This document shows positions 5,891 through 47,580 of a stretch of DNA of 64,000 nt, piece by piece. How positions within the stretch are numbered: position 1 is the stretch's first letter; each line of letters starts with the position of its first letter. The stretch comes from an uncultured Gammaproteobacteria bacterium (lineage in GTDB: Bacteria > Patescibacteriota > Patescibacteriia > Patescibacteriales > UBA12465): NCBI GenBank assembly GCA_964408775.1, contig CAYPAP010000001.1:89524-153523 (forward strand), read 5' to 3'. A program made the position numbers and the translations under genes. Below the pieces are notes generated by a model. The model saw nothing but the letters and a program-made list of their open reading frames with translations. It had not been told where the DNA came from and did no database searches.

Positions 5891-7315
5891 CTATTTTTGT
5901 GTTTTTAATAAACTTTCCCCTACACGGAAGACATCGCCAGCACCTAAAAGTAATATAACATTATTATCACCCTTAATTTCTCGTAATTCTTTTTCAACGG
6001 CTTTCATGTCCTTAAAATATTTTAAATCTTGGTTAATTTTGTGTTTCAAGTTATATTGCCTTATTTTCTCCATTAAATCAAGGCTAGAAAGACCGCCAGC
6101 CTTTTCTCGGGCCGAGGTATAAATTTCTAATAAATAGACCTTATCTGACTGGGTAAAACTTTCAGCAAAATCATTTATTAGAGCTTTAGTCCGAGTAATG
6201 GTATGAGGATGAAAAACAGTAATTATTTTTTTGTTTTTATACTTCTGGGTCACCGCCTCTAAACAAGCTTTAACCTCAACCGGATGATGAGCATAATCAT
6301 CAATAATAATATTACCTTTAAATTTTCCTAAAACTTCAAAGCGACGAGCCGAACCCGAAAATGACCACAAAGCTTTTTTAACATCGTCAACCTTAGCTCC
6401 TAATTTTAATGAAGTAGCAATAACAGCCAAAGCATTAGAAATATTATGACGACCAAATAACTTTATTTTAAATTCTCCCAAGCTTTTATTGTTTTCAAAA
6501 ACTTCAAAAATCTGACCACTAGATTTTAATTTAAAATTTTTAGCTGAATAAATTTTATACTTTGTTCCCTTAAATTTCTTATTAACATCACCTAAACAAT
6601 ATCCAATTATTTTTCCGGCTGAATTTTTAGAAGCTTGAAAGGCCAAATTATTTTCCAAATTAACTACGACAAAACCATTTTGTGGAATTTTTTTTATAAA
6701 ATCAACAAAAACTTTATAATATGCCTTCTCATCTTTAAAATAATCAGGGTGATCGTAGTCAATATTATTTAAAACAATAGCTTGGGGATTAAAATATTGA
6801 AACTTATTCTGATATTCATCGGATTCGGCAATAAAATATTTGGACTTACCGATCAAAGCACTGCCCTTAAATTGCTGAACGTAGGAACCGGTCAAAACAT
6901 TGGGTGAAAGACCACTGTATTGCAAAACATAACCCAGCCAAGAAGTAACTGTGGTCTTGCCATGACTACCGCAAACCGAAATACCAAAATAATCATCAAA
7001 TAAATAACCCAGGGCCTGAGCATAAGAAATTTTAGGAATATTCTTGTCCTTAAAATATTTTAACTCTATATTTTCCTGGTCGTTATAGGCCGAAGAATGA
7101 ATTATTAAATCAATTTTTTTAGGAAAATTTTTTAGAGAAAATCCATTTTTAAATTTAATTTTAGCATTAAGCAAGGTTTTATCAGTTGGGAAGACATCTT
7201 TAATATCTGAACCACTAACAACAAAACCTTGACTCTGTAAAAATTGAGCCAACATTGCCATACCAACCCCCTTAATTCCAACCATATAAACATTTTTGTA
7301 ATTTCCCAATTTCAT
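5891..7315 (-). CDS. murC: UDP-N-acetylmuramate--L-alanine ligase
   Basis: 474 aa. Motifs VGIKGVGMAMLAQFL and GSHGKTTVTSW (Mur ligase P-loop), with mur cluster context. Confidence 0.9.
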   Translation of the reverse strand: MKLGNYKNVYMVGIKGVGMAMLAQFLQSQGFVVSGSDIKDVFPTDKTLLNAKIKFKNGFSLKNFPKKIDLIIHSSAYNDQENIELKYFKDKNIPKISYAQALGYLFDDYFGISVCGSHGKTTVTSWLGYVLQYSGLSPNVLTGSYVQQFKGSALIGKSKYFIAESDEYQNKFQYFNPQAIVLNNIDYDHPDYFKDEKAYYKVFVDFIKKIPQNGFVVVNLENNLAFQASKNSAGKIIGYCLGDVNKKFKGTKYKIYSAKNFKLKSSGQIFEVFENNKSLGEFKIKLFGRHNISNALAVIATSLKLGAKVDDVKKALWSFSGSARRFEVLGKFKGNIIIDDYAHHPVEVKACLEAVTQKYKNKKIITVFHPHTITRTKALINDFAESFTQSDKVYLLEIYTSAREKAGGLSSLDLMEKIRQYNLKHKINQDLKYFKDMKAVEKELREIKGDNNVILLLGAGDVFRVGESLLKTQK

Positions 7316-43599: not shown

Positions 43600-44673
43600 T
43601 TATTGAGTACTGTTATCATAACTTAAAAAAATGCTTTTGTAAATACTGGGAATATCCTGATTAATTATGTATTTTCTCAATTTTCTAGTGTTTCCATGGC
43701 CAAGTAAACCAAGATAAGAAATTACCGATTTGCCGTTTTCGCTACTTTTAATTCTAAGAATCATTCTTTTTTTGGTCGAGGTTCTTAAAACCCTATAATT
43801 ATAAAAATTAACCCAACCCAAATAATCAAGACCTGAATTTATGTTTTTGATCATAATCTTATTAGGATGCAAGGATAGCCTAAGATTTTTATCTAAAAAA
43901 GAAGATATATTAAAAATAATATTTTCCAAAAAACTTTTATTTTCATGGAAAATTAGAAAATCATCAGCATAACGAATATAATGTTTAATTTTTAAATCTC
44001 TTTTTATAAAATTGTCCAACTCATTTAAATAAATATTAACTAATAATTGACTAGTCAAATTACCTAGGGGTAAACCTCGACCCTTATCCCCGGGGGTGCT
44101 AAAACTATCAATAACCTTATCCAACAACCACAACATATTTTCATCTTTAATATATTTTTCTAAAATATTTTTTAATATTTGATGGTCAATACTGGCAAAG
44201 AATTTTTTAATATCACATTTTAAAATTCAACAATTTCTAGAATTATTTTTAGAAACCCTAAAAACAAATTGATCAAATCTGTCCAACCCCTTAAAGACCC
44301 CCTTATTAAGGCGACAAGAATAAGAATCGTAAATAAATTTTTTATCAAAAAATGGGTATAGGATTCTATAAACGGCGTGATGAACCACTCTATCAGAAAC
44401 AAGAGCCTTATGAATATTCCTCGGCTTAGGATCATTTATTTTAAAGGCGTAATACCCGCTGTGATTATAGGTTTTATTGGATAAAGAATCATGAATGAAA
44501 ATCAAATTATCCATTAATTTTAAGGAAAAATAAATCACATCTCTCTTTTTATTTTTTCCTTTCAAAAACTCCCGCCAAGACATAAGTAAATTTTCCAAAG
44601 ATATGGTATAATTATAAACATCATGAAGTCTCCTAATTTTTCTCATAAAAATATTAATTTTACTATCCTTCAA
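43600..44673 (-). CDS. DGR-type reverse transcriptase, with one in-frame TGA at 44227-44229
   Basis: Track ORFs 44227..44673 and 43600..44136 are in the same frame. Read through, the sequence is ...SLENLLMSWREFLKGKNKKRD...INDPKPRNIHKALVSDRVVHHAVYRIL...DSYSCRLNKG...NC-TGA-ILKCDIKKFFASIDHQIL...GLPLGNLTSQLLVNIYLNELD...YIRYADDFLIF. The [LI]GxxxSQ and YxDD motifs are characteristic of DGR RTs. An alternative start is the ATG at 44646. Confidence 0.85.
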
Positions 44674-45012
44674 AAAATAAAAGAAATATATTTTTCGTGG
44701 ATAAAAATATCAGACAATATTCCAAAAAAACGCCAATATACACTGGGCAATAAAATTGAAAATAAAATACTTGAGCTCTTAGAAATTTCTTATTTAGCCT
44801 ATTTTTCCAAGGAAAATAAAGTTGAAAAAATTTCTAAATGTATTACAGTCTTAGATTTATTAAAATTTCATATTTCTTTATCCTGGGAAGCTAAATTAAT
44901 CCCCAGTAAGCAATATGAAGAAACATCTATATTATTGGCTGAAGTTGGGAAAATGATGGGCGGATGGAAAAACAGCCTTAACAATCCCGAAAGAAAAAAC
45001 CACAGCTTCTGA
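44623..45012 (+). CDS. avd: Avd-like accessory variability determinant (four-helix-bundle / 23S-rRNA-IVS protein family)
   Basis: 129 aa. ...IPKKRQYTLGNKIENKILELLE...LDLLKFHISLSWEAKLIPSKQYEETSILLAEVGKMMGGWKNSL resembles Bordetella bAvd (...AQVLIAEVGRILGSW, recalled from memory). It is on the strand opposite to RT, TR and target. Confidence 0.8.
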   Translation: MKSPNFSHKNINFTILQKIKEIYFSWIKISDNIPKKRQYTLGNKIENKILELLEISYLAYFSKENKVEKISKCITVLDLLKFHISLSWEAKLIPSKQYEETSILLAEVGKMMGGWKNSLNNPERKNHSF

Positions 45013-45026
45013 GCTATGGAAAAAAA

Positions 45027-45162
45027 TATTTTCGGACAAAAAGGAAATCATTGTCAGCATCGAAATGATTGTCAGGATTAGCCCAATTGTAGTTGAGATA
45101 ACGCTTGCCATTGTCATTGCGATTGACATTGAATACATGAGGATTGTCACTGGAGTCGCTTA
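45027..45162 (-). repeat. DGR template repeat (TR)
   Basis: A 136-bp direct repeat of 45479-45614 (offset 452). In the target frame it encodes SDSSDNPHVFNVNRNDNGKRYLNYNWANPDNHFDADNDFLFVRK and is rich in AAY codons. Confidence 0.85.
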
Positions 45163-45410
45163 ATATAAAATACCCTCCTCTTCCACCACCAATTCGATAT
45201 AATTTAATACAAAGAATTTAGTTGAATATAATTTGTGATCTAAAATCAACTAGCATTTTATACCAAATATTTTTATTTTTTTGATTTAATTATAAACCTT
45301 AGATAAAAAGCCTTGACCATTTATAATTTTAGTTTACATTAAATAGAAAAGCTTCAAAAAACCTTAGTCTCTTGAAATAACTAGTCCAAAAGTATTATAG
45401 TATTTTTTAG

Positions 45411-45466
45411 CAAAGTTTCAAAGTATCAAAGCTTCAAAGTTTCAAAAAAAGAACAAAAGAACAAAA
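45411..45466. repeat. short tandem 8-bp repeats
   Basis: caaagttt caaagtat caaagctt caaagttt caaaaaaa gaacaaaa gaacaaaa, 12 nt downstream of the target stop. Confidence 0.7.
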
Positions 45467-45477
45467 ACCCTAAAAGA

Positions 45478-47580
45478 TTATTTGCGGACAAAAAGGAAAT
45501 CATTGTCAGCACCGAAATGACGGTCAGGATTAGCCCAAAAGTAGTGGAGATAACGCCCGCCATCGTCACTGCGATAGACATGGAATCCATGAGGATTGCC
45601 ACCGGAGTCGCGCATAGGGTTCATGGCTATAGCAATCCATTCGCCTTTAGGCTGGTCATAGCCCATTAATTTCTGGTAATTTAATCTCAGTAGTGGTCCT
45701 ACTTCTGGGGGACATAATTCTAGGTCCAATTCTTTGCCCTTAGCTATTATTTCTTGAAATTTAGCTCCATTGGGAAATCCTAAATCAGCCACCGATAGCT
45801 TTATTAATTTCAATTCTTTCTTTTCTGTACTTATCTTAAAATCTAGATGATTTAATAATTCTTTAGCTGTATCAGAAACTGTTATTTGATTAGGATTATT
45901 ATAGTCACTTATCTTTTTTCTTTCATTTAATTTTTCTTTAATTTGATTTTCGCTTAAATCACCAACCATCATATCTATCTTTCTAATTTCTTTTCCAGGA
46001 AATTTAGTATAGATATGTTCAATATTGTTGTTTAATACTTCCTGGCACAGTGGGCCAATATATACTTTAATATTATAGTTGTTTCTTAGATCTTCTTGGC
46101 TAGTGGCAATTTGATTAGGACTACAATTAAATAATATGGGTAAATCTTCTTTGATCTTTCTAACAGCTATGACCTCGTCTATCCTTTCGTCTCTTTGATA
46201 ACCAAATCCTTCAATTGGTCTATCTAGCTCATAGATAAATCTTAGTTCTTCTTCATTTAATTTATCTTCCTTTCTTTTCCAGATGTCGGTTAGTTTTTCC
46301 ATGTCTTTAATTCTTTGTTTATACAGCTCTCCTTCTTGACCAAAATCGCTCAGTTTTTCATTAAGCACGGGGTGAATATATGGATCTAGGTTCTGATCAT
46401 GGGCTATACCTCTAGGGGGTTCGGCTATTTTATTATTCCCTTCCATTCTAACAGCTAAACGAGGAATCTTGGCTTCACCCTCTTCGTTATTGGAATAATA
46501 GACATGAAAATCTCCACCTTGAAGTTGGTTTTTAGCAGTATCATAATTAGCAGTACACCATTCTAGAGGATAACCCTCAAAACTTTTGACTAGCCCATCG
46601 GGTTCGGAATATTGATCATACTTTACCCATTGTCCTTCAATATTTCTTAGTCCCTCAGTCGAATATTCTGGTATTTCTAGAAGAAATTGAGCATATAATT
46701 TAGAGAAGTTTTCGGTTGATAATAATTCAATAAATTCGTCCTTGTCTAATTTCTTGCTTTCATTGTCAATTTGTAGTTTTAATAAATCATCGTCTCTTTG
46801 GTCTCTTGGTTTTTGCTTTTCTTTTTTTACCCTACTTTTTTCTTCTAATAATGAACCCATGGCTGAAATAGTTTTAGCTAGAGCTCGGCTATTTAATAAT
46901 GGGAAGGAGTTGGTAGTACTTTCGGTTCTTTTCTGAAAACGAGCTTTTTCTAATATTTTTTCATCACTTATTTCTCTATTACAATTAGAACAAAAATTAT
47001 TCTTTTTATCTATGGGTTTCTCACAACCTGGGCAATGAGGAACCTTTTCATATTTACCCATTTTCAACATTGAATTGAAGGCCCAATATTTAGCCCACAT
47101 CGGATAGTCAGCGTCAGGAGAACTTAAATAGTCCACCCATCGATTTAGGCTATTTATCTGGTTAAATCTGATTACTTCTAATTCTTTTTCTTTCATGTCT
47201 TTGGGAAAAATATAGTTTATTTTCCCTTCCTCGGTTGTTTCTTTTTCTACTCCTTGGTTTTGTAGGTCTCCGCTATATCCTTGTCTTATCATTATATCGG
47301 CCTGATTATTCCAATATGATTGAGGGATATTATCCATTTCTATATTTACATACTTTTTTTGATAATAGTTTTTAATTCTCTCTATTACTCTGGGATCGTC
47401 TCTATGGCTTAGGTGGGTTTTCTCTAATATTTCGAGAAAATGAGAAATCTTCTCAGTTGGTTTCTGAGATATTTCTTCTCCTTTTCTTTTTCTTCTGTCT
47501 TGTTCGTGCTCTACCTCTTTGGAGATATGAAATTTAGGGTCCTTGCTGTGTAAAAATTCTAGTTCGATGTTTTTGCTCAT
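45478..47580 (-). CDS. DGR variable (target) protein, 700 aa
   Basis: Track ORF. Its last ~45 codons are the VR (...RDSGGNPHGFHVYRSDDGGRYLHYFWANPDRHFGADNDFLFVRK*). It contains HCPGCEKPIDKKNNFCSNCN (a zinc ribbon) and has no obvious signal peptide. Confidence 0.85.
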   Translation of the reverse strand: MSKNIELEFLHSKDPKFHISKEVEHEQDRRKRKGEEISQKPTEKISHFLEILEKTHLSHRDDPRVIERIKNYYQKKYVNIEMDNIPQSYWNNQADIMIRQGYSGDLQNQGVEKETTEEGKINYIFPKDMKEKELEVIRFNQINSLNRWVDYLSSPDADYPMWAKYWAFNSMLKMGKYEKVPHCPGCEKPIDKKNNFCSNCNREISDEKILEKARFQKRTESTTNSFPLLNSRALAKTISAMGSLLEEKSRVKKEKQKPRDQRDDDLLKLQIDNESKKLDKDEFIELLSTENFSKLYAQFLLEIPEYSTEGLRNIEGQWVKYDQYSEPDGLVKSFEGYPLEWCTANYDTAKNQLQGGDFHVYYSNNEEGEAKIPRLAVRMEGNNKIAEPPRGIAHDQNLDPYIHPVLNEKLSDFGQEGELYKQRIKDMEKLTDIWKRKEDKLNEEELRFIYELDRPIEGFGYQRDERIDEVIAVRKIKEDLPILFNCSPNQIATSQEDLRNNYNIKVYIGPLCQEVLNNNIEHIYTKFPGKEIRKIDMMVGDLSENQIKEKLNERKKISDYNNPNQITVSDTAKELLNHLDFKISTEKKELKLIKLSVADLGFPNGAKFQEIIAKGKELDLELCPPEVGPLLRLNYQKLMGYDQPKGEWIAIAMNPMRDSGGNPHGFHVYRSDDGGRYLHYFWANPDRHFGADNDFLFVRK
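45479..45614 (-). repeat. DGR variable repeat (VR)
   Basis: 118/136 identical to the TR. Of the 18 mismatches, 17 are at positions where the TR sense strand has A (plus-strand t). The 3'-terminal 27 bp (45485-45511, matching TR 45033-45059) are invariant despite containing four sense-strand adenines, which is IMH-like. Confidence 0.85.

Follow-up and report, generated by a model that had tools for sequence, protein, structure and literature searches.

[quoted passage not shown] The BPP-1 element is ordered mtd-VR, avd, TR, Sp, brt (architecture B1) and its non-coding spacer of 144 nt, positioned 3' of TR, carries the priming A56 as well as RT- and Avd-binding elements (PMC6182149; 10.1101/2023.10.23.563531). 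The TR-RT spacer of BPP-1 is also represented by RT-10, one of the RT-associated RNA motifs in Rfam described by Weinberg et al. 2017, who expected other motifs to serve other DGRs (PMC5737381). The order TR-(avd)-RT was named architecture B3, and the main text of the paper that named it reports it for 90% of CPR DGRs (Wu et al. 2018, PMC5758913).

We analysed a stretch of DNA of 64,000 nt (hereafter the window) that harbours a cassette of this kind. ORF predictions and repeat matching placed on the minus strand, in this order, a target gene of 700 aa (45478..47580), for which the related locus L002 has a syntenic homologue of 701 aa, the VR (45479..45611), which forms the 3' end of the target gene up to its stop codon, a spacer, the TR (45027..45159), to which VR matches without gaps, and the RT gene (43600..44646, or from an alternative TTG at 44673). 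The avd gene, encoding 129 aa, is found on the plus strand (44623..45012), convergent with TR and divergent from RT, and its stop codon TGA (45010-45012) is separated from the end of TR by 14 nt. These coordinates bear out the preliminary description, according to which avd lies opposite to target, VR, TR and RT, fills the interval between 45027 and RT, and overlaps the RT 5' end by 24 nt (RT start at ATG 44646) to 51 nt (TTG 44673). As in BPP-1, Avd is paired with RT, mutagenesis between TR and VR is adenine-specific, VR is positioned at the 3' end of the target and RT contains LGNLTSQ; however, in BPP-1 avd shares the strand of VR and TR and is placed between them, whereas in the window it occupies the TR-RT interval on the other strand. 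With architecture B3, as presented in the main text of Wu et al. 2018 (PMC5758913), the window cassette shares TR, reverse avd, RT, a single upstream target with a 3' VR and a CPR host, and no difference in layout was noted. The reversed avd is the already catalogued standard layout of CPR DGRs and not a new one, and the suggestion that the arrangement had not been characterised did not hold, given its 90% share among CPR DGRs in that text and its presence in all 75 informative relatives (see below). The same main text gives no account of the overlap of the start codons, of a hairpin placed at the avd stop, of the leader and its conservation or of the junction repeats described here. The window cassette is an ordinary CPR-type DGR of architecture B3 (target/VR, spacer, TR, reversed avd and RT), a reading that we hold to be probable when the TR-unit model set out below is included.

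The identity of the plus-strand ORF, described as Avd-like from its sequence, was confirmed by the HMM search that had been named as a possible refutation: residues 15-118 matched the Pfam family PF22296 (bAvd) with 68.3 bits (cutoff 40), and the match to the stricter NCBIfam equivalog DivGenRetAVD (NF033474) reached 75 bits, just under the cutoff of 80. Both profile scores rule out a non-Avd ORF, and the Avd homologues are 62-97% identical. Avd proteins are pentameric barrels of four-helix bundles to which RT and RNA bind. The RT gene matched RVT_1 (E = 8e-17) and its LPLGNLTSQ agrees with (I/L)GxxxSQ, a motif specific for DGRs. TR and VR differ by 15 A-to-N mismatches and one T-to-G, so that 15 of the 16 fall on TR adenines; in 43 relatives with TR directly upstream of the avd stop, 689 mismatches at A were counted vs 29 others. 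A Pfam search of the target gene gave no confident domain, the zinc-ribbon matches being weak and below cutoff. Just after VR, tandem CTTTGAnn 8-mers (45410..45446, minus strand) were found, and in relatives similar short repeats are seen at this position too (alignment A6). No GC-rich IMH-type hairpin follows VR in the window; L002 carries one of 27 nt just after VR (CCCCAGC-CTTC-GCTGGGG). Because only 34% of DGRs have a GC-rich inverted repeat downstream of VR, according to the main text of Wu et al. (PMC5758913), its lack is not strictly defining for a DGR.

The closest RT homologues come from CPR genomes (58-67% identity; Giovannonibacteria, Woesebacteria, Azambacteria, Patescibacteria), and all informative relatives have Avd and TR adjacent to RT. 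The ProRS encoded beside the cassette shares 69-72% identity with Falkowbacteria and Patescibacteria proteins. Judged by the named relatives of ProRS and RT, the host is a member of the CPR (Patescibacteria), the group in which B3 is the prevailing layout. The gene order mreC-mreB-proS-RT-(avd)-target-ruvA is common to the window and L002, which are 92-93% identical in leader and TR and 83-87% identical in the genes; a scan of the genome contigs with Avd returned one locus only. A comparison of homologous cassettes, also proposed beforehand, comprised 75 informative loci, 10 further loci with less than 200 nt of sequence upstream of RT being left out. In all 75, avd was reversed, head-to-head with RT and directly upstream of it, and none was co-oriented. 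The geometry goes beyond chance, being shared by all related loci that offered enough sequence. The shared orientation rules out a local inversion and inversion scars, and the relatives indicate that the reversed-avd layout is ancestral to the whole RT clade.

The start regions of avd and RT overlap by 24 nt (44623..44646), with the avd ATG being the complement of RT codon 8 (CAT, His). ATG 44623 is the sole canonical start upstream of the Avd core, and an RT start at ATG 44646 agrees with relatives that begin with M-x6-H. The 24-nt overlap is also present in L001 and L002, and in the P0034 lineage the avd and RT ATGs abut exactly. An extended -10-like sequence TGGTATAAT (44604..44612, plus strand), conserved in L001-L003, lies within RT codons 10 nt upstream of the avd ATG and may act as the avd promoter; among 56 relatives, 43 have a TAnnnT hexamer whose end lies 5-10 nt upstream of the corresponding ATG. 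For RT, the promoter scan of the window yielded two minus-strand candidates, each with 9 of 12 consensus positions and in AT-rich DNA, and no convincing separate RT promoter. We propose that avd and RT would each be transcribed from a promoter buried in the first codons of the other gene; their initiation regions overlap and may therefore compete. The missing Shine-Dalgarno motif was considered as a sign of leaderless avd and RT and this argument was dropped, because the motif is rare across the window (3 of 48 long ORFs).

A simple repeat between or within two divergent genes can switch both through changes in repeat length, e.g. the (TA)n tract at the divergent promoters of hifA/hifB in Haemophilus influenzae, and poly-G contingency genes are known from Neisseria and Campylobacter. 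At the avd/RT junction of most sister lineages of the window cassette there is a (GA)n, poly-G or (GT)n tract of variable length; no simple-sequence repeat was found at the junction in the window. Tracts of 25, 21 and 15 nt were observed in the P0015 lineage and of 21, 17 and 15 nt in the P0032 lineage, the latter with 0 mismatches over 1 kb of flank, and in these lineages both Avd and RT are in frame only at some tract lengths. The hallmarks of a simple-sequence-repeat contingency locus, a tract that varies in length among otherwise identical sequences and a changing frame, are found in sister lineages only, and the resemblance to hifA/hifB and the poly-G genes is confined to these junctions, where it was seen in sequence. 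While the hifA/hifB tract is located in the promoter spacer, the tract of the (GA)n lineages appears to lie inside both overlapping reading frames, and a single change in its length would be predicted to move Avd as well as RT into or out of frame. The short (GA)6 tract of the P0077 lineage was invariant in 5 contigs, the tract of the P0022 lineage lies inside the protein used for the look-up, which forces identical length, and the P0060 lineage has no adjacent avd.

At the other end of avd, a terminator scan detected a hairpin in the TR sense, CCATAGCT-CAGA-AGCTGTGG (45019-45000), followed by the U-run TTTTTTCTTT (together 44990..45019, minus strand). It has a stem of 8 bp and a loop of 4 nt, the avd stop codon falls within the loop and next to it, and the fold energy is -19.5 kcal/mol (z = -3.2). 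Hairpin and U-run have the sequence form of an intrinsic (Rho-independent) terminator, and termination is predicted at this site. Within the window alone terminator-like sites are not in excess (3 vs 2.5 in shuffles), and the hairpin is credible as a terminator because it is conserved, only conservation lending it credit. Detection was performed locus by locus, with strand and random-window controls and with loop lengths varying between loci: of 65 distinct loci, 59 have a hairpin and T-run in the TR sense that straddle the avd stop, the 5' arm occurs in 55 different sequences and the pairing is kept by compensatory changes. A strict scan found it in 43/66 loci in the TR sense and 0/66 in the avd sense, vs 23/1236 (1.9%) random windows. 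In avd, elevated synonymous codon identity is restricted to the final ~8 codons. The single fold of the window also contains an outer helix between the TR 3' end (CCGAAA) and UUUCGG after the U-run, for which permutation gave no support (-7.68 vs -7.20 +/- 0.33). A search for a cPRT-Stop-like duplex between 45 nt upstream and 110 nt downstream of TR did not separate native from permuted sequences (z = +1.3), and the antisense-avd region showed no covarying pairing with the TR flanks.

Upstream of TR, a promoter-like site (45394..45421, minus strand) consists of TTGAAA (45421-45416), a 16-nt spacer and TATAAT (45399-45394), with the -35-like hexamer falling within the CTTTGAnn 8-mers. This predicted TR promoter matches the consensus at 11 of 12 positions and is kept in L002; its -10 hexamer has an invariant A2 and T6 in 38/38 aligned relatives, most of which have TGn just upstream of the -10 box. 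Between it and TR lies a structured non-coding leader of ~230 nt (45160..45387, minus strand), the 5' end of which was tentatively placed from the position of the -10 box. Single-sequence nhmmer from the window retrieved the same VR-TR spacer in more than 30 distant loci, and the iterated leader profile matched 62 of 65 loci, always in the TR sense and always ending at TR. RNAalifold predicted 27 pairs, 21 of them compensatory. In separate pair counts, 24 of the 27 changed on both sides and 96.1% of cells were paired, compared with 68.4% for shuffled and 40-51% for slid controls; double-change cells numbered 270 vs 79 and 34-62, respectively. The Rfam search of the whole window at gathering thresholds gave nothing except two tRNAs, Rfam 15 returned no family at E <= 1 for 44500-45700 and none at E <= 0.1 for the leader of seven relatives, and a sub-threshold suhB/mmgR match near the L022 leader was taken as chance. 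No Avd signal was detected in any of the six frames of the VR-TR spacer, and its origin as a relic of a co-oriented avd was rejected. No description of the conserved leader was found in the searchable literature. The leader resembles RT-10 and the further motifs of Weinberg et al. 2017 (PMC5737381) in being a conserved structured RNA beside a bacterial RT gene; it is positioned 5' of TR and lacks an Rfam 15 match, whereas RT-10 lies between TR and RT. Unlike BPP-1, the window has a non-coding, structured and conserved VR-TR interval of ~320 nt, and its TR is followed by a hairpin and U-run.

We propose that the TR RNA would be a separate transcript of ~400 nt (about 45387 to 44990) composed of promoter, structured leader, TR and terminator, with its promoter, terminator and ends as predicted from sequence. 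The binding of RT and Avd and the priming, for which the Bordetella phage uses its spacer 3' of TR, would fall to the leader, and the TR RNA would be antisense solely to the final ~25-30 nt of avd. The preliminary description had proposed a minus-strand TR-RT co-transcript that is antisense to the whole avd mRNA, with the avd complement acting as priming spacer and with expression of Avd coupled by antisense pairing to that of TR RNA and RT. Such a transcript is consistent with the mere 14 nt of the TR-RT interval that lie outside avd, the failure of the scan to find a strong independent RT promoter, the leakiness of intrinsic terminators and the essential ~140 nt downstream of TR in Bordetella, which carry the priming adenosine (PMC6182149). 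However, a conserved hairpin and U-run follow TR directly in the TR sense, the strongly conserved structured RNA sits upstream of TR, avd shows no excess of synonymous constraint beyond its last ~8 codons, covarying pairing of the TR flanks with the antisense-avd region was not found, and TR and RT need not be co-transcribed according to the main text of Wu et al. (PMC5758913). We consider the co-transcript unlikely, and the antisense coupling as put forward is unsupported; some read-through transcription may still take place. The hairpin might also be the counterpart of the Avd-binding stem-loop of Bordetella and not a terminator, with the RNA reaching into the avd complement and the leader acting as an additional scaffold. 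Handa et al. (10.1101/2023.10.23.563531) predict stem-loops just 3' of TR in 207/278 Avd-containing DGRs, with stems of ~9 bp and often tetraloops, to which the 8 bp and tetraloop of the window compare well; the hairpin may therefore bind protein and the RNA may run past it. Furthermore, the P0060 lineage retains a hairpin and T-run upstream of RT without an adjacent avd. Against this speak the U-run, a hallmark of intrinsic terminators, which follows the stem at almost every locus, the end of the antisense-strand constraint within ~25-30 nt and the negative result for the cPRT-Stop-like duplex, and we hold this reading to be improbable. The wider proposal that the RNA machinery was relocated in the CPR B3 clade, the leader replacing the downstream spacer of Bordetella, and that avd and RT of sister lineages are jointly switched by tract length, is a tentative one which, both parts taken together, we rate slightly below even.

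The RT ORF of the window contains one in-frame TGA (44227..44229, minus strand) in place of a Trp with a conservation of at least 90% (W140, alignment A3), where L001 and L002 have TGG. The preliminary description did not mention this codon (44229-44227). Besides, avd and three other long ORFs terminate in TGA with no open frame continuing beyond it, and long ORFs are not broken up, which rules out an alternative code with TGA as a sense codon. The intact RT frame needed for an active element is absent from the window, while the class of the element is unaffected; with a stop at a conserved Trp this copy may be inactive, and probably is, barring read-through of the stop or an erroneous base call. 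It could be a decaying relic with RT knocked out, the layout being functional in relatives, and this is compatible with the TR-unit model. In addition to the loss of the conserved Trp to what is a true stop in this genome, the 27-nt GC-rich hairpin that follows VR in L002 is missing here. On the other side, the lesion is a single one, no damage is seen in avd, TR, leader, hairpin or target, 15 A-to-N differences are present in VR, one assembly base could be a minority allele or an error, and UGA is the leakiest stop codon. In our judgement the case for a relic is evenly balanced.

The reversed avd alone adds little, being the normal published layout of CPR DGRs. With the TR-RT interval of CPR cassettes taken by a gene on the opposite strand, the question is raised of where the RNA elements lie that the Bordetella phage keeps there, and the comparative evidence gives a testable candidate, an RNA of ~400 nt composed of leader, TR and hairpin. 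If the junction repeats of the sister lineages are true switches, hypermutation would be subject to a stochastic on/off control and CPR bacteria would gate their DGRs by phase variation. Should such phase-variable gating be true, the reading of DGR activity in metagenomes would change.

The target of the diversity-generating retroelement (DGR) is a 700-aa ORF on the minus strand (47580-45478), the last part of which is a repeat of about 133 nt (45611-45479, minus strand) that matches a second copy downstream (45159-45027, minus strand). Because 15 of the 16 differences between the two copies fall at adenines of the downstream one, the former was assigned as the variable repeat (VR) and the latter as the template repeat (TR). 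The reverse transcriptase (RT) frame, recognised by an RVT_1 match and the LGNLTSQ motif, runs on the same strand from TTG 44673 or ATG 44646 to 43600. Between TR and RT lies the plus-strand avd ORF (44623-45012), which scored 68.3 bits against Pfam bAvd (cutoff 40) and 75 bits against the NCBIfam Avd equivalog (cutoff 80), with its stop codon 14 nt from the end of TR. Its sole canonical start, ATG 44623, is complementary to RT codon 8 (CAT), and therefore avd and RT overlap head-to-head, by 24 nt or, with the RT start at TTG 44673, by 51 nt. The preliminary description had placed avd on the plus strand, in the TR-RT interval and across the RT start, and all of these elements are borne out by the ORF, repeat and profile data. 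The window as a whole has a GC content of 33%, Shine-Dalgarno-like 4-mers upstream of only 3 of its 48 long ORFs and, in ORFs of at least 200 aa, 34 TAA, 7 TAG and 3 TGA stop codons.

The comparison covered one related genome locus, four loci retrieved with close Avd relatives, and a further 80 from metagenomes to which an RT alignment led. Every one of the 75 loci in which Avd was visible has it immediately upstream of RT and on the opposite strand; the other 10 offer less than 200 nt of sequence upstream of RT. The conserved Avd and RT protein cores are separated by a median gap of 43 nt. L002, a locus with an 85% identical Avd, shares with the window the gene order mreC-mreB-proS-RT-(avd)-target-ruvA. 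An inversion peculiar to the window's copy, considered in the preliminary description, thus does not hold, and by these comparisons the reversed avd is an inherited chromosomal layout. Nor is the arrangement uncharacterised, as had been supposed: the cassette classification of Wu et al. 2018 (PMC5758913) already contains it as B3, TR-(avd)-RT, with parentheses denoting the reverse strand, and the same paper points out that a minimum of two transcription units is required in some DGRs. The product of the ProRS gene adjoining RT shares 69-72% identity with proteins named Candidatus Falkowbacteria and Patescibacteria group, and RT relatives of 58-67% identity are named as Giovannonibacteria, Woesebacteria, Azambacteria and Patescibacteria; judged by sequence, the window is from a CPR genome. 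The closest relative of the cassette in the genome collection, L001 (CAYYLI010000073.1), is on a contig of 2.8 kb assigned to an 'uncultured Gammaproteobacteria' MAG; with genes 84% identical to the CPR locus of the window, this contig is probably mis-binned.

The RT frame of the window carries a single in-frame TGA (44229-44227, minus strand) where close relatives have TGG and where, in a set of 28 RTs, Trp conservation reaches at least 90%. TGA does act as a stop codon in this genome, so that either RT has acquired a nonsense mutation or the assembly carries a variant base. The cassette may therefore be inactive, and the 15 adenines at which VR differs from TR indicate that it was active in the past.

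The VR-TR interval contains no ORF and keeps a stable length among relatives (median 351 nt, interquartile range 319-373 nt). Using the window spacer as a lone nhmmer query, we recovered its counterpart from over 30 distant loci (E-values down to 4e-18), whose RT proteins are only 55-60% identical, and an iterated profile located this leader in 62 of 65 loci, each time in TR orientation and with its end at TR. The leader and TR of L002 match those of the window at 92-93% identity, a higher figure than the 83-87% of proS, RT, avd and target. The alignment begins with short CTTTGAnn repeats, followed in many loci by a GC hairpin with a T-run, which would end the target transcript, then by a -10 box with A2 and T6 invariant in 38/38 sequences and mostly TGn before it, and finally by about 230 nt of helices. 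In the window, this box is TATAAT (45399-45394, minus strand), with the -35-like TTGAAA 16 nt upstream (11/12 match). The repeats of the window are tandem 8-mers (45410-45446, minus strand) just downstream of VR that overlap the -35-like hexamer, and similar short repeats occupy the equivalent place in relatives. In L002 the target stop and VR are immediately followed by a 27-nt insertion (6866-6895) with the GC-rich hairpin CCCCAGC-CTTC-GCTGGGG; the window lacks it (~45470-45480), and many other relatives have a GC hairpin and T-run there.

RNAalifold yielded 27 pairs in the leader, 21 of them with compensatory changes, the pair counts being made after one non-covarying helix had been swapped for one read from the alignment. 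Paired cells amounted to 96.1%, against 68.4% in shuffled and 40-51% in slid controls; cells changed on both sides numbered 270 (shuffled 79, slid 34-62) and were spread over 24 of the 27 pairs, and the covariation score was 0.894 (shuffled 0.319, slid at most 0.226). A similar loop, CGGYUAMGGCUU, caps two of the hairpins. On this covariation, the interval 45160-45387 (minus strand), about 230 nt long, is a structured RNA that is conserved and covaries strongly; no Rfam 15 family matched it, the RT-associated motifs of Weinberg et al. 2017 included. An origin of the spacer as a decayed avd was rejected, none of its six frames giving an Avd signal.

On the other side of TR, the terminator scan identified in TR sense a terminator-like hairpin, CCATAGCT-CAGA-AGCTGTGG, then TTTTTTCTTT (45019-45000, minus strand, with the U-run to 44990), with a fold energy of -19.5 kcal/mol (z = -3.2) and the avd stop codon in and beside its loop. 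The window alone has no excess of terminator-like sites over shuffles (3 vs 2.5); across relatives, a hairpin and T-run occupy the post-TR spot in 59 of 65 distinct loci, the 5' arm taking 55 different sequences and each stem position showing several pair types, with compensatory changes. A strict scan detected both elements in TR sense in 43/66 loci, in avd sense in 0/66 and in 23/1236 random windows. In 35 loci the hairpin contains the avd stop, in 19 it is internal to the avd ORF and in 5 external to it; the end of avd looks as if superimposed on an RNA element. In a codon alignment of 74 avd genes, synonymous-codon identity was raised only in the last ~8 codons (Pro 0.65, Asn 0.91, Ser 0.60, Arg 0.72, compared with 0.2-0.35 elsewhere for such amino acids), and the complement of the rest of avd is, by this measure, free of constraint from a second function. 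The Avd C-terminal tail, beyond the Pfam profile, is encoded by the complement of the hairpin.

Permutation tests gave no support for pairing of the TR 3' end with sequence past the U-run, nor for a Bordetella-like duplex of the 45 nt upstream of TR with the 110 nt downstream. With a conserved hairpin and T-run after TR, a constraint on avd that ends quickly and no supporting duplexes, the antisense coupling via a TR-to-RT co-transcript put forward in the preliminary description is unsupported, and the data argue that a transcript running antisense through avd mostly does not occur, although transcription may read through from TR into RT. The hairpin could also, or instead, be the Avd-binding stem-loop that Handa et al. 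(10.1101/2023.10.23.563531) predict immediately 3' of TR for 207 of 278 Avd-containing DGRs. That it belongs with the TR RNA rather than with avd is suggested by the P0060 lineage (L107-L115, marine metagenomes), whose RT, of the same clade and with no avd called upstream, keeps a GC hairpin and T-run, here ~80 nt before the RT start.

The promoter-like box, structured leader, TR and hairpin with U-run align as one conserved block on the TR strand, which we infer to be the TR RNA, of about 400 nt (about 45387-44990). This RNA would overlap avd mRNA only over ~25-30 nt at its 3' end. In the Bordetella DGR, priming and the binding of RT and Avd belong to the spacer 3' of TR (PMC6182149; 10.1101/2023.10.23.563531), whereas in the clade of the window the conserved structured RNA is 5' of TR; the leader would take on these roles. 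A candidate avd promoter element, the extended -10-like TGGTATAAT (44604-44612, plus strand), lies 10 nt before the avd ATG inside RT codons, and 43 of 56 relatives have a TAnnnT hexamer with its end 5-10 nt upstream of the corresponding ATG. For RT, the candidate promoters, which fall within avd codons, are weak (9/12 consensus matches). If both promoters are real, the initiation regions of avd and RT would overlap and may exclude each other, which would be a coupling of another kind than that first proposed.

Furthermore, 67 of the 75 loci carry a pure simple repeat at the avd/RT junction, read on the RT-sense strand as G6-14 (48 loci, mode 9-10), (GA)n of 11-35 nt (17 loci) or (GT)n (2 loci); the lineage of the window and a few others are without it. 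The (GA)n group has a conserved RT-sense ATG ~65-70 nt before the tract and, across it on the other side, an avd-sense ATG at 11-40 nt. The frame offsets of the two ATGs to the Avd and RT cores are always equal, and therefore one change in tract length shifts both genes. The starts are mirror images: a conserved Avd His codon (motif HIPK) is complementary to this RT-sense ATG, and a conserved RT His codon (CAT) to the window's avd ATG (44623-44625). In two (GA)n lineages (L102-L106, L122-L124), contigs encoding the same RT protein are distinguished by tract length alone: one lineage has tracts of 25, 21 and 15 nt, with avd and RT both in frame only at 25, and the other tracts of 21, 17 and 15 nt, with 0 mismatches over 1 kb of flank and both genes in frame at 21 and 15 and out at 17. 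Across lineages the frame is spread about evenly over the three phases, which would fit either phase variation or an untranslated tract; the (GA)n junction may be a phase-variable switch of the retroelement. Full-text literature searches combining DGRs with homopolymer or phase-variation terms returned no description of such junction repeats.

The layout is thus already catalogued and typical of the host group, and the locus is an ordinary, possibly dead, DGR of known type. Its interest lies in the features of the clade around it, namely a new conserved leader RNA, a putative terminator over the avd stop and the junction repeats of sister lineages.
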